From the NCBI GenBank assembly GCA_043803805.1, contig JAZDJP010000056.1, positions 11,680 to 75,679 on the forward strand: a DNA stretch of 64,000 nucleotides. Direction: 5' to 3'. Position 1 is the stretch's first letter. Each line of letters opens with the position of its first letter. Positions 48,131 to 53,425 of this stretch are shown here, in pieces. The translations under genes and the position numbers were made by a program. This DNA is from Planctomycetota bacterium (lineage in GTDB: Bacteria > Planctomycetota > JAZDJP01). Below the pieces are notes generated by a model that was given only the letters and a program-made list of their open reading frames with translations, made no database searches and had not been told where the DNA came from.

Positions 48131-50791
48131 TCAGGTTTCGGGAGCGACGTACTTTTCCCCGCCCATTTTCTTCCAGCAACGATACAACAGAAACAGGCAG
48201 TATAGGTTGGCGAGGCCGAACAGCCCCTTCCACAAATAGACGTAGCGGTAGTTGTCCGTCAGCAGGGTGTTGACCGTCAGCCAGTCCACGAAAAGCGCCC
48301 CCGGCAATCCGATCACGATCCGCATGGTCTGGCGGACCAGCGCCGCCGCGGAACAAAACTGCCCGTATTTCGCCCGGGGGAATATGGCGATGAGGAAGGG
48401 GATGCCCACGGCGGTCTCCAGACCGGTGAACGGCATGCGAAGCGCATCGAGCCACAACAAGGAAAAGTACCCCTGTATGGCGAAGAAACAAAGGAAGAAC
48501 ATCGGCGTGAGAAAGATGTAGTTGAACAAGTGGACGCGGACCGGGTGGAAGCGGTCCACCATGGCCCCCATGGGGTATGACAGGAGGATGCCGATAAGCG
48601 TGAAGAAGCTGCCGATGCGGCCTGCCTTGAAGAAGCTGATTCCCTCGTCAATGTTCCATACGTGAAGTTTGCCTTTGTCGCTCGCGTTGATCAGGATCGG
48701 GCCTTCCGATTCGAAGGCCATGCCGGTCACCGCGGTTGTATAACCCGACAATGTCTTGTGCGATTGGTCGGTCGCGGTGAGAAACTTGTTGGAACCGAAT
48801 CCGGCGGGGTCCCACAAACGGACGCTGCCGTCGAGACTCGCGCTCAGAATCATCCGGATGTCATGTTTGTAACGGACGTTGGAAATGGCTTTTTTGTGGC
48901 CGACCAGGTTCCATACCAGCCGACCGTCGGCGGCATCCCAGACGCGCACCTTCGAGTTGATGTAATCGTTCCTGCCGTCGCGTCCGCCCGAGATCACCCA
49001 CCGGTCCTCCCCGACGATCCGGCTGGGAATCCGGTAGGCCGGCAGGTACAGTGATTCCCGGGTGAATATGTCCTTGAAGTAGTCCGGAATGAACCGGACG
49101 AGATGGATCAGGAATCCGGGGCGTTCCTTTTTGGGAAGGACGATTCTTTCCACGGCGGGGGAAAATGCCACGGTGTACACGGGGCCCATCGGATCCTTTG
49201 CCGGATCGGGTGTTTTATCAATCACCCGGAGGGATGTCCCCTCCGCGACGTTCCAGATGATGATCTTGCAGTCCATGCCTCCGGAAACGAGCCGAGAGCC
49301 GTCGGAGGAAAATCCGACGGAGTTCACCTGGCCCGTATGTCCGGTGAGCGTGTTCAGGCACTTTTCGGAAGTGATATCCCAGATCCGGACGGTTCCGTCC
49401 GCTCCCGCGGAGGCGAGTCGGTTTCCATCCGGCGAGAACTCGAGCGCCACGACGGGGCCGACGTGTCCGGGAAGCGTCTTTGCGCCCCGACTTTCGGAAA
49501 TGACATGGGTTGTGATGGTTCCCGTGGACGTTCCGCTGGCGGCGAGTTTTCCATCGGGGCTCATGGCCACGCATCGGATGGCATCTTCTGATGTGGACAA
49601 GTCGCGCACATGTTCAAGTGTGTTCTTCTCCGTTTTCCGCCATGCCTTGAGGGTGCCGTCGGGCCCTCCGGAAACCGCCATTTTCCCGTCTGATCCACAC
49701 GACACGCGGGTGCCGAAATGATTCTTAAGAAAGGCGGGAATGCCATCGGCATCCTTCCCGGGGGCGTGCCCCGGCGGCGGTTTCGCCGTCTTTCCCGTGC
49801 CGGCGGATTCCTCCCCATGGGCGACAATGCCGGACTGGTGTTTTCCCAGATGAAGGGTGAAGACGCTGGACATCTTCGGGCCGTTGACGATGACCCCCAT
49901 CGCCGCGGAAAGGTACATCAAAATATAGATGGGATGGGTGAAGCATTCCCGGAAGTAGATTTTGGTTTGAGACCATTTGCTCGTCTTTTTGGTGACGTCC
50001 GTGACGGGGGGGTATTCCCCTTCCTTGACCCGCCAGCACATGAGGCCGAATCCGACGAAATACAGGACGGCCACGCCGATGTGGAACCATTTGAAATGCG
50101 TCAGGTAGTATTCGCTTAAAAACACCCCGAGGAACCAACCCTTGATGCCTCCGATGATGCGGCACCACGCGAAGAACCGCCCGGTTAATTTGGGGGGGAC
50201 GACGTCCGCGAACAAGTAATAATAAACGGTGCCGACGAACTCGTTGAATACGGTGAATCCGATGGTCAGGACCCCGATCGCGATCATGGCCACGAGAAAG
50301 GCGTGCCTGGGGTCCACCAGAGTTTTGACATAGGCGATCACTTCGTCGGTAAAGCCCAGTCCGATCGCGAAGGCGCAGAGGAGCGGCATGGTGAACAACA
50401 TATAGGGGATGCGGCGTCCCAATCGGCTGCGACAGCGGTCGGATTTGAAACTGATGATCGGTCCCAGGACGATGCCGATGGTGTTGGGAACGAGGACGAA
50501 CAGAAAATACACCATCGTGTTGCTAAGCCGGTAGTTGTCCTGGAGATAGGTGGTGATGACGTCCGCGCCGCCGAAGCTCTCGAAAAGGCTGAAACACACA
50601 TCGCCCCAGATGAGCCAGCTGAACAGGACGAAAAGCCCGGCCTTGGTGTACTGGAGCGTTCCGCACCGGTACCGGTCATCCGCCTCCACCGGCGGATTGG
50701 GAGGCGCCGGGGGAGGAGCGCCGGGGGACTTCCCTTGCGGGGAAGAATCCGGGATCGGTTCGCCGCCGTCGGGTGGTTTTGTCTCGGCCAT
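48131..50791 (-). CDS. GPH/MFS_2-type transporter with an inserted WD40 beta-propeller domain (paralog B)
   Basis: The 886-aa product has a Pro-rich N-tail. About 7 TM helices include the GPH-family motif SDRCRSRLGRRIPYML. About 360 aa of WD40 repeats follow (LTGHTGQVNSVGFSSDGSRLVSGGMDCKIIIWNV; DGSVRLWD; KGKLHVWNI). About 5 C-terminal TM helices end ...KKMGGEKYVAPET. Confidence 0.8.
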   Translation of the reverse strand: MAETKPPDGGEPIPDSSPQGKSPGAPPPAPPNPPVEADDRYRCGTLQYTKAGLFVLFSWLIWGDVCFSLFESFGGADVITTYLQDNYRLSNTMVYFLFVLVPNTIGIVLGPIISFKSDRCRSRLGRRIPYMLFTMPLLCAFAIGLGFTDEVIAYVKTLVDPRHAFLVAMIAIGVLTIGFTVFNEFVGTVYYYLFADVVPPKLTGRFFAWCRIIGGIKGWFLGVFLSEYYLTHFKWFHIGVAVLYFVGFGLMCWRVKEGEYPPVTDVTKKTSKWSQTKIYFRECFTHPIYILMYLSAAMGVIVNGPKMSSVFTLHLGKHQSGIVAHGEESAGTGKTAKPPPGHAPGKDADGIPAFLKNHFGTRVSCGSDGKMAVSGGPDGTLKAWRKTEKNTLEHVRDLSTSEDAIRCVAMSPDGKLAASGTSTGTITTHVISESRGAKTLPGHVGPVVALEFSPDGNRLASAGADGTVRIWDITSEKCLNTLTGHTGQVNSVGFSSDGSRLVSGGMDCKIIIWNVAEGTSLRVIDKTPDPAKDPMGPVYTVAFSPAVERIVLPKKERPGFLIHLVRFIPDYFKDIFTRESLYLPAYRIPSRIVGEDRWVISGGRDGRNDYINSKVRVWDAADGRLVWNLVGHKKAISNVRYKHDIRMILSASLDGSVRLWDPAGFGSNKFLTATDQSHKTLSGYTTAVTGMAFESEGPILINASDKGKLHVWNIDEGISFFKAGRIGSFFTLIGILLSYPMGAMVDRFHPVRVHLFNYIFLTPMFFLCFFAIQGYFSLLWLDALRMPFTGLETAVGIPFLIAIFPRAKYGQFCSAAALVRQTMRIVIGLPGALFVDWLTVNTLLTDNYRYVYLWKGLFGLANLYCLFLLYRCWKKMGGEKYVAPET

Positions 50792-53425: not shown

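Follow-up and report, generated by a model that had tools for sequence, protein, structure and literature searches.

Two adjacent genes, A and B, encode 12-helix MFS transporters that carry a WD40 propeller in the loop between TM7 and TM8. The explanation that best accounts for our results is that A and B are old paralogs of GPH/SLC45 type, that their propellers lie in the periplasm, that their N-terminal tails (N-tails) are alike through gene conversion, and that their C-terminal tails (C-tails) carry a motif of the whole family; we give this explanation as a whole a probability of roughly two in three (0.68). The A/B pair itself is ordinary, and its notable feature is the WD40-in-loop architecture, with the propeller predicted to be periplasmic. 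Literature searches returned no description of an MFS protein in which a loop carries a WD40 domain.

The stretch of DNA analyzed, referred to here as the window, is 64,000 nucleotides long. The ORF list bore out the initial annotation of two co-oriented tandem paralogs: gene A (50795..53425; 876 amino acids) lies upstream of gene B (48131..50791; 886 amino acids), both on the minus strand, with a spacing of 3 nt (TAA GCA ATG). The product of A was a 100% match to database protein P0001, named 'MAG: MFS transporter [Planctomycetota bacterium]', and that of B is database protein P0036. Directly upstream of A and in the same orientation, across a 78-nt gap, is a transketolase-family gene (53504..55348, minus strand) with the Pfam domains Transketolase_N, Transket_pyr, and Transketolase_C. 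On the other side, a GH123-family glycoside hydrolase gene (46416..48104, plus strand; Pfam GH123_cat, E=9.5e-82) converges with B across a 26-nt gap, and its translation has no obvious signal peptide. The window contains two GH123 genes and one GH2 gene. Given the 3-nt gap, A and B are probably translationally coupled. They are probably also co-transcribed, possibly together with the transketolase gene, which may head a tkt-A-B operon; the basis for this is the spacing of the genes and one consensus promoter match at chance level. That match, at 55418-55390 on the minus strand, is the sole sigma70-like site in the region (11/12 matches, no better than chance), and a promoter and terminator scan of the region gave nothing above chance. 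The GC3 values of A (0.71) and B (0.77) are inside the range of the neighboring genes (0.70-0.86), and base composition thus gives no hint of horizontal transfer for either gene.

With 12 TM helices each, A and B are MFS transporters of the GPH/SLC45 type and belong to a PVC-specific family. The precomputed Pfam matches for both proteins include PF07690 (MFS_1) and PF13347 (MFS_2); in a Pfam scan of A and B, all 25 families among the matches listed were WD40-type. Homologs without the WD40 domain, with 46-50% identity in the membrane part, scored 45-74 bits with MFS_1 against a cut-off of 33.4. MFS motif A, with the pattern G-x-x-x-D-R-x-G-R-[RK], was found in the TM2-TM3 loop of A (SDRCRSRFGRRIPY; SFQSDRCRSRFGRRIPY), and its residues D118, R119, R121, G125, R126, and R127 were invariant in 66 sequences. 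Scores with TIGR01301 (GPH_sucrose) were 28.8 bits for A and 19.5 bits for B, below the subfamily cut-off of 511, and the weak match in A spans residues 103-180; only TM2-TM4 are aligned. When the full alignment served as the query, WD40 matches dominated a PDB profile search. When it was rerun with the WD40-less relatives it returned MFS relatives, the best solved-structure sequence matches being SUC1 (8bb6) and SLC45A4 (9ghz), with E=1e-6 to 1e-5. As judged from these sequence comparisons, the SUC and SLC45 proteins are distant relatives of A and B, which fall outside the GPH sucrose/H+ subfamily.

The AF2 model of A (pLDDT 90.3, pTM 0.88) has 12 TM helices plus the propeller, and the model of B (pLDDT 88.9, pTM 0.87) has the same order of elements. 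The helices of both models form two six-helix halves, TM1-6 and TM7-12, with a cytoplasmic loop containing an amphipathic helix between them. In A, the Pro-rich N-tail (residues 1-38; 53312..53425) is predicted to be disordered (pLDDT 41-70) and cytoplasmic. It is followed by residues 39-318 (52472..53311), comprising a YRCGxLxYTK motif and, from the AF2 helices, TM1-TM7 with the cytoplasmic central loop; by the WD40 propeller, which has seven blades and interrupts the TM7-TM8 turn (residues 319-705; 51311..52471); and by TM8-TM12 and the C-tail (residues 706-876; 50795..51310; AF2 helices 710-865 and tblastn mapping). The corresponding parts of B are a Pro-rich N-tail, likewise predicted to be disordered (pLDDT 41-68) and cytoplasmic (residues 1-38; 50678..50791), the conserved motif with TM1-TM7 and the central loop (residues 39-315; 49847..50677), the propeller, which occupies the TM7-TM8 loop and has its helical insert at 560-575 (residues 316-715; 48647..49846), and TM8-TM12 with the C-tail (residues 716-886; 48131..48646). 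All of these parts are on the minus strand. Residues 329-348 of B form a B-specific disordered loop in the AF2 model. The WD40 block that the initial annotation reported is present in both proteins and lies between membrane segments.

The identity of the propeller was clear from both sequence and fold. The Pfam WD40 match in A had E=1e-41, and PF00400 gave 139.9 bits for A and 147.6 bits for B against a cut-off of 27, with four to five repeats matched. Foldseek TM-scores (target-normalized) were 0.85-0.92 to WDR5, PkwA, and designed 7-blade propellers. The insertion point in the TM7-TM8 turn was set by the WD40-less homologs, in which the sequence '...VFxLxL' continues directly into 'G[IV]T...'. 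The linkers to the propeller are about six residues or fewer, and the TM7-TM8 turn otherwise has two to four residues. In the conservation map, the propeller of A has a hydrophobic helical insert at 539-555 followed by a near-invariant NESLYD motif. The propeller is predicted to be periplasmic because both termini are inside and the insertion is in the TM7-TM8 turn. This placement of the turn and propeller comes from topology rules (MFS topology, the distribution of K and R, and architectures with an extra TM) and not from the AF2 model. By the same rules, the propeller would be held rigidly against the periplasmic side of the C-domain, beside the substrate entrance.

The family comprises about 60 protein clusters and was found only in PVC bacteria, with several genomes carrying more than one copy. 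The JGI name for the WD40-less relatives is 'maltose/moltooligosaccharide transporter'. By a synteny check, a tandem pair of family members at locus L015 arose by its own, younger duplication and has different surroundings. As a test for a single origin of the insertion, we scored the split between WD40-inserted sequences and all others; it was present in only 11/60 bootstraps. Family members are usually located within glycan-utilization gene clusters, where their neighbors include regulators with a GntR-HTH and a periplasmic-binding fold, and enzymes of the GH2, GH4, GH42, GH94-like, and GH123 families, sulfatase, AGE epimerase, and rhamnosidase. A universal partnership with GH123 was considered and rejected; GH123-like genes were near only L008, L044, L047, and L068, in addition to the window. 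Immediately downstream of the family members, the proteins of unknown function at L067 (773 amino acids), L068 (755 amino acids), and L069 (599 amino acids) had no matches to each other or to the ORFs of unknown function in the window.

A and B were 45% identical by BLASTP and 48% identical in the family alignment, and their gene-wide dS was 1.41, which is saturated. By similarity to A, B ranked 29th of 55; in the search started from B, A ranked 13th and no closer ortholog of B was found. Each protein resembled homologs of other genomes as closely as it resembled the other, the best match for both A (54%) and B (49%) being P0007. In neighbor-joining trees built from corrected p-distances, A and B were paired as sisters in 0/100 bootstraps in each of the MFS, WD40, and whole-body partitions, and the smallest clade holding both contained 31-33 of 56 family members. 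The sequences thus place the duplication as old and not as recent, the age that the initial annotation had given it. Alignment by domain confirmed that identity is not uniform along the length, being 57% in the N-terminal MFS half, 41% in the WD40 domain, and 41% in the C-terminal MFS half, with 13-77% per 30-residue window inside these parts. This is not the proposed pattern of conserved tails and a diverged propeller: propeller and C-terminal MFS half have diverged to the same degree. The proposed comparison of dN/dS between propeller and TM parts, computed for A versus B, gave rough values of 0.32 for WD40, 0.27 for the N-terminal half, and 0.49 for the C-terminal half; these are uninformative because dS is saturated, and they lend no support to a diversifying propeller.

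The similarities between the tails of A and B most likely have two separate causes, one for the N-tail and one for the C-tail and the segment preceding TM1. The last 12 residues matched at 11/12 positions, as the initial annotation had reported, but the motif is not specific to the pair. From the alignment, WKKMGGEKYVxPE (in looser form WKKxGGxxYVxPE) appears as a C-terminal motif of the whole family, including the WD40-less relatives. In 66 sequences, 10 of them without WD40, W863 was invariant and Y860, G867, G868, Y871, and P874 were at least 90% conserved. The motif occupies W863-T876 in A (WKKMGGEKYVPPET; 50798..50839, minus strand), where it is predicted to be cytoplasmic (pLDDT 86-96), and W873-T886 in B (WKKMGGEKYVAPET; 48134..48175, minus strand). 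Synonymous sites in the C-tail were at background, with the same codon used at 5/10 positions. Residues 39-55 consist of the family motif Y-R-C-G-[ST]-L-x-Y-T-K and the start of TM1. The C-tail and the pre-TM1 YRCGxLxYTK motif would then be structural elements of the family under purifying selection on the protein.

The N-terminal 55 or so residues, described earlier as one near-identical conserved tail, are a composite of a disordered tail (1-38) and the family motif with the TM1 start (39-55). The N-terminal part is indeed the most similar long stretch, but A-B identity was 71% (27/38) over residues 1-38 and 75% over residues 39-50. Identity of the A N-tail to other family members had a median of 21%. 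By similarity to A, B ranked 1st of 55 for the N-tail and 29th-43rd for the body. In codons 1-24, the same codon was used at 15/16 identical residues, versus 181/375 elsewhere (Fisher p=2e-4; scan-wide permutation p=0.0175), and the shared N-tail residues include the identical rare codons CCA, TCT, CAA, AAA, and GAT. The dS of codons 1-25 was 0.32, compared with 1.41 gene-wide. DNA similarity begins at AAGC[G/A]ATG, 4 nt before the ATG, with none further upstream. The 12 nucleotide differences in codons 1-24 are on all three codon positions, as expected without constraint on the amino acids. These results, from about 100 nt of two sequences without close relatives, point to gene conversion between the 5' ends of A and B, over a tract about 70-100 nt long and later than the duplication. 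Homogenization of the 5' ends is the best explanation for the likeness of the N-tails; it would have occurred well after duplication and been followed by near-neutral drift. The putative tract extends from about -4 to codon 34 in A (53324..53429, minus strand), and its counterpart in B (50690..50795, minus strand) overlaps the stop codon of A at its upstream end. The pair is a clean small case in which a short gene-conversion tract may mimic a conserved functional tail.

Two alternatives concern the history of the pair, and we regard both as unlikely. In one, the N-tail has been kept by selection, as a site for a shared lineage-specific cytoplasmic partner or as a regulatory or sorting signal, with no conversion. 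The 27/38 tail residues common to A and B, against 48% identity in the body, agree with this, and two partial matches in other genomes, the PNPPAE[IV]D part of the tail in P0032 and an M-x-x-x-KPP start in P0007, hint at constraint or common ancestry; given P0032, some of the A-B tail similarity could be ancestral. Selection on the protein, however, does not account for identical rare codons at 15/16 shared residues, and the spread of differences over all three codon positions also speaks against it. Moreover, non-adjacent paralogs of one genome have unrelated N-tails, and in the younger L015 tandem pair (69% identical) the tail, at 60%, evolves faster than the body, which is the normal behavior of this tail. 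As judged from sequence and model, the N-tail is disordered, fast-evolving, and unconserved in the family, and a docking element is not supported. The other alternative is that A and B are true sisters by lineage-specific duplication, separated in the trees by an artefact of two fast branches. Such a history would fit the absence of a close ortholog for either gene, the single-copy state of the nearest relatives examined (P0007, P0009, and P0032) at their own loci, and the use of trees based on distances only. Long-branch attraction, however, would tend to unite A and B rather than to separate them, and their pairing was absent from the bootstraps of all three partitions. Even as sisters they would, with saturated dS, have duplicated long ago.

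Two further alternatives concern the propeller, and we consider both improbable. The usual role of a canonical WD40 propeller is to bind a protein or peptide in the cytoplasm, most characterized WD40 domains are cytoplasmic, and a non-canonical topology could place the A and B propellers in the cytoplasm as intracellular regulatory or scaffolding modules, like most bacterial WD40 domains. We think this very unlikely, since the propeller interrupts the TM7-TM8 turn of an MFS protein with 12 TMs and a cytoplasmic motif A and since, with the propeller excluded, K and R number 17 in 108 predicted inside loop residues versus 2 in 54 outside. Fused and split forms in the family also have the WD40 domain beyond one extra TM. 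In P0108, MFS and C-tail motif are followed by an additional TM (491-518), then by a helical domain, and last by WD40, and because the extra TM follows the cytoplasmic C-terminal motif, its WD40 domain must be outside; at L023, L024, and L027 the WD40 module is a separate gene that overlaps the MFS gene at ATGA and has an N-terminal TM anchor. Least probable of all is the model of the initial annotation, receptor paralog expansion by recent tandem duplication, with selected docking tails and a diversifying, ligand-recognizing propeller. The tandem arrangement, the non-uniform identity, the tails as the most similar parts, the several genomes with at least two copies, and the younger pair at L015 are all in its favor, and both tails are predicted to be cytoplasmic with the propeller on the opposite side. 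It is opposed by the 45-48% identity, the saturated dS, and the failure of A and B ever to be sisters. The C-tail is common to WD40-less transporters, the N-tail, predicted to be disordered, lacks conservation in the family and matches at synonymous sites, and the divergence of the propeller does not exceed that of the C-terminal MFS half.

Under the preferred explanation, old paralogs with a periplasmic propeller, the most likely function of A and B, as suggested by distant homology and gene context, would be the proton-coupled uptake of oligosaccharides that have been freed from glycans. The neighboring, apparently cytoplasmic glycosidases (GH123 and GH2) would process the imported oligosaccharides. 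The propeller is probably a periplasmic capture or docking module for a partner protein or glycan, and A and B probably have different substrates or partners. We know of no direct precedent for a periplasmic, glycan-related role of WD40, and a bacterial periplasmic WD40 domain atop a sugar-type MFS protein would extend the known range in which WD40 domains operate. By analogy with the dependence of TRAP and TTT transporters on binding proteins, we offer the speculative proposal, which we do not expect to hold but think worth stating, that the PVC family is a secondary transporter dependent on its periplasmic propeller. The WD40 domain would capture the oligosaccharide, or dock the releasing enzyme or an outer-membrane component, and pass the oligosaccharide to the MFS pore. 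The two parts would have been joined in at least three ways: by in-loop insertion, with enough repeats for one to about three propellers, as a translationally coupled gene for a TM-anchored partner, and by C-terminal fusion through a 13th TM helix. To our knowledge, MFS transporters are generally thought to function without extracytoplasmic binding modules. If the proposal is true, A and B would be two receptor specificities from one operon. The family suggests a mechanism coupling periplasmic glycan breakdown to uptake in Planctomycetes, Verrucomicrobia, and Lentisphaerae, which are major polysaccharide degraders.

Comparison with known systems shows both likenesses and differences. The GPH, SLC45, and plant SUC sucrose:H+ symporters share with A and B the 12-TM MFS fold and motif A between TM2 and TM3, but their sequence similarity is distant and they have no folded domain in the TM7-TM8 loop; the long loop of SLC45 and SUC proteins is cytoplasmic and lies between TM6 and TM7. 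Few MFS loops contain a folded domain, and SV2, the textbook example, comes from eukaryotes. SV2A, SV2B, and SV2C are MFS proteins with a large folded TM7-TM8 insert on the non-cytoplasmic side that serves as a receptor surface. The TM7-TM8 position of the insert is like that in A and B, but the SV2 insert is a pentapeptide-repeat beta-helix and not WD40, and no sequence relationship of SV2 to A or B was detectable in any search of this analysis. The bacterial PkwA (5yzv) and the eukaryotic WDR5 resemble the A and B propellers in having the canonical 7-blade WD40 fold with its repeat signature. They are soluble cytoplasmic or nuclear protein-interaction modules, whereas the A and B propellers are within a polytopic membrane protein, are predicted to be periplasmic, and have a family-specific hydrophobic helix and NESLYD insert. 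A further comparison is with the NanM mutarotase propeller, which is fused to the sialic-acid transporters SiaF (SSS) and NanZ (MFS, Akkermansia) (PMC8461474). The NanM fusions occur in Planctomycetes/Verrucomicrobia and Bacteroidetes and are proposed to act on the substrate immediately before it is taken up; the NanM domain is 6-bladed, has a known enzymatic activity, and is fused at the N terminus with a leader peptide, with an extra TM in NanZ (PMC8461474). Like A and B, with their predicted periplasmic propellers, these fusions join a periplasmic beta-propeller covalently to a sugar secondary transporter; unlike them, A and B have a 7-bladed WD40 propeller without known activity, inserted inside a loop.

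Genes A (50795–53425; 876 aa) and B (48131–50791; 886 aa) are both on the minus strand in the ORF list. They run in the same direction, with just GCA between the stop codon of A and the ATG of B. The initial annotation described them as a recent tandem duplication with near-identical N-terminal tails. The two ORFs and their spacing proved to be real, but "near-identical" overstated the likeness of the tails, since the first 60 residues were 70–77% identical in the global alignment. In the same alignment the last 11 residues were 91% identical, and identity per 30-residue window ranged from 13% to 77%. 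Over the full length, BLASTP gave 45% identity with 60 gap positions. A Pro/Gly/Lys-rich loop at the propeller entry of B (residues 329–348; window 49748–49807) is missing from A and is predicted to be disordered (pLDDT below 50).

The age of the duplication was examined by divergence and by relationship to other family members. Codon-aligned Nei-Gojobori analysis of the whole gene gave a dS of 1.41 and a dN of 0.47; thus, the synonymous sites of A and B are saturated. In the family alignment A was 56% identical to P0007, a family member from another MAG, versus 48% to B. From A, B ranked 29th of 55 overall, 40th for the N-terminal membrane half, 43rd for the propeller, and 30th for the C-terminal half. 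A search from B returned P0007 as the top match (49%), with A 13th. In neighbour-joining trees of the membrane part, the propeller, and the whole body, A and B paired in 0 of 100 bootstraps each, and the smallest clade containing both held 31–33 of the 56 members. The nearest relatives examined (P0007, P0009, and P0032) are single-copy at their own loci. With 45–48% identity, saturated dS, and no bootstrap pairing the two as sisters, the duplication is not recent, and we conclude that A and B are old tandem paralogs; the PVC family to which they belong is uncharacterised and consists of sugar-type MFS transporters with a predicted periplasmic WD40 propeller in loop 7–8. A second tandem pair, 69% identical, is found at locus L015 (6894–12584) of Planctomycetota MAG MFD02416.bin.2.38, and is a separate, independent, and younger duplication. 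Both of its copies are frameshifted, which may reflect sequencing or assembly error.

Both tails of A and B had been interpreted as conserved docking tails. Nearly all family members, WD40-less transporters included, terminate in the motif WKK[ML]GG..YV.PE. Among 66 sequences W863 is invariant and conservation is 90% or more at Y860, G867, G868, Y871, and P874; the motif is modelled by AlphaFold2 with high confidence. A and B use the same codon at 5 of its 10 shared residues, and are as diverged synonymously there as in the rest of the gene. Rather than being peculiar to the pair, the C-terminal tail is a structural motif that ordinary purifying selection maintains throughout the transporter subfamily.

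The N-terminal tail has two parts. Residues 39–50 (YRCG[ST]LQYTK) are family-wide, with G44, L46, and Y48 invariant, and their synonymous divergence between A and B is at background. Residues 1–38 are 71% identical between A and B, compared with a median of 21–23% between either protein and other members, and across the family neither the length nor the sequence of the N-terminal tail is fixed. The DNA similarity of A and B begins 4 nt ahead of the ATG, with none further upstream. In codons 1–25, third-position identity was 76% versus 45% gene-wide, and dS was 0.32 versus 1.41. In codons 1–24 the same codon is used at 15 of 16 shared degenerate residues, non-preferred codons included, versus 181 of 375 elsewhere in the two genes (Fisher p=2e-4); when the whole gene was scanned for a stretch of this kind, the permutation p was 0.0175. 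The 12 nucleotide differences in codons 1–24 are spread across all three codon positions, so drift of this tail has met little constraint at the amino-acid level. For comparison, the tails of the L015 pair are 60% identical versus 69% for the body and 80% for the N-terminal half, and in three other genomes the tails show no relationship between paralogs that are not adjacent.

The simplest reading of these results is a short 5' gene conversion between the adjacent paralogs long after their divergence, to be taken with caution given a short tract and a comparison of just two sequences. The main alternative is that shared selection for a lineage-specific partner has kept the tails alike; part of the N-tail motif is indeed present in P0032, from one other genome. 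However, such selection leaves the synonymous matches unexplained, and we favor gene conversion. A tail that is unconserved in the family, and whose likeness in the pair reaches synonymous sites, does not support an N-terminal docking function.

The propeller had been proposed to be diversifying. Identity and dN/dS were calculated by domain for A and B, the latter only roughly because dS was saturated throughout. The propeller was 41% identical, equal to the C-terminal membrane half, and its dN/dS (0.32) was not the highest (N-half, 0.27; C-half, 0.49). Across the family, blades 3–6, the NESLYD motif, and the junctions with TM7 and TM8 are best conserved, and blades 1–2 and the last blade are most variable. 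With surface and core positions pooled, none of these measures set the propeller apart as a diversifying receptor surface.

Both proteins are in the database as "MFS transporter" entries on an 85.6-kb contig of an NCBI Planctomycetota MAG, and their precomputed domains include MFS_1 and MFS_2. Pfam placed WD40 repeats mid-protein (PF00400; 140 bits in A and 148 in B), and the sole NCBIfam result was a weak GPH_sucrose match over TM2–TM4. Confident AlphaFold2 models built from the 66-sequence family alignment (A, pLDDT 90.3 and pTM 0.88; B, 88.9 and 0.87) predicted twelve long helices each, with the central loop cytoplasmic and a beta-propeller set between helices seven and eight; confidence was low over the first 20–38 residues. 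By Foldseek the propeller resembled 7-bladed WD40 proteins (WDR5, PkwA, and designed propellers; target-normalised TM 0.85–0.92), and no solved structure spanned both the transporter and propeller domains. The WD40-less relatives score above the MFS_1 threshold, and the solved transporters nearest to their profile are plant SUC1 (8bb6) and human SLC45A4 (9ghz). Within the propeller is a hydrophobic helix (A residues 539–555, window 51761–51811, WLLVKWYFVQAFV; B residues 560–575, window 49067–49114), and the near-invariant NESLYD motif comes after it; the insert, which is family-specific, may touch the membrane or the MFS domain.

About ten close relatives (480–560 aa) have no WD40 block and in the alignment pass straight from '...VFxLxL' into 'G[IV]T...', which places the insertion exactly in the very short TM7–TM8 turn; the propeller linkers are a few residues on each side. 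MFS motif A (SDRCRSRFGRRIPY; D/R/G/R/R invariant) is in loop 2–3, and predicted inside loops contain 17 Lys+Arg versus 2 in predicted outside loops, propeller excluded. From the canonical N-in/C-in topology that these features indicate, we infer that loop 7–8 and its propeller are periplasmic, in line with the geometry implied by the initial annotation (tails inside, propeller outside).

Split-gene and fused relatives independently agree with a WD40 domain outside. At L023:2933–6144, L024:9824–13203, and L027:10016–13413, a WD40-less member is followed by a gene overlapping it at ATGA, whose product starts with a short N-terminal stretch and a single TM helix, continues with a ~300-aa helical domain lacking Pfam matches and a WD40 propeller, and ends in a conserved amphipathic segment (…DWALWLMRKD); MFS genes of the split type group in one clade (60 of 60 bootstraps). 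In P0108 a single, strongly hydrophobic 13th helix (residues 491–518), placed after the cytoplasmic C-tail motif, fuses the TM-helical-WD40 module to the transporter, so that the WD40 domain must end up outside. Enlarged members (P0002–P0006 and P0008; 1088–1382 aa) carry ~250–500 extra WD40-repeat residues in the same TM7–TM8 loop, enough for one or two additional propellers, with the family-type propeller nearest TM8.

The full architecture is common to ~60 protein clusters (36–54% identity), and 100% of matches among species-representative genomes were in the PVC group (Planctomycetota/Phycisphaerae, Verrucomicrobiota, Lentisphaerota/Victivallales, and Kiritimatiellia). Typical neighbours are GntR-HTH regulators with a periplasmic-binding-protein fold and GH2, GH4, GH42, GH94-like, GH123, sulfatase, N-acylglucosamine-2-epimerase-family, and rhamnosidase proteins. 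In three other genomes, family members have a large gene immediately downstream (L067:9620–11941, 773 aa with a signal peptide; L068:9697–11964, 755 aa; L069:9609–11408, 599 aa with a CARDB domain); their products are dissimilar to one another and almost devoid of Pfam annotation.

The pair lies in a sugar-related cluster that takes in window 53504–64000. A GH123 gene (46416–48104) is convergent with B on one flank; directly upstream of A is a co-oriented transketolase gene (53504–55348), itself preceded by a near-consensus sigma70-like site (55418–55390) of a quality expected by chance. Beyond are an Ldh_2-family dehydrogenase (55508–56587), a second, divergent GH123-like gene (56696–58279), GH2 (59910–62231), and two ORFs without Pfam matches (58297–59913 and 62201–63676). 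Neither GH123 protein of the window has an evident signal peptide, which, with the sugar gene context, fits oligosaccharide import by A and B followed by cytoplasmic cleavage; any role of the propeller is hypothetical. Elsewhere in the window are an unrelated MFS_1 transporter gene 7 kb away (40470–41636; 388 aa), very large ORFs at 110–5329 (1739 aa, no Pfam match at all) and 8730–12821 (1363 aa, bacterial Ig-like domains Big_7 and Big_13), and, around 12–14 kb, the GC minimum outside the transporter genes (0.56).

Of most interest here is the architecture and the fact that it recurs, whether inserted in a loop, split between two genes, or fused. A literature search found no published description of an MFS transporter with WD40 in a loop. 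The closest published precedent comes from sialic-acid transporters of these phyla, to which a periplasmic NanM propeller is fused (PMC8461474); in those fusions the propeller is at the N-terminus, whereas in A and B it is inside loop 7–8.
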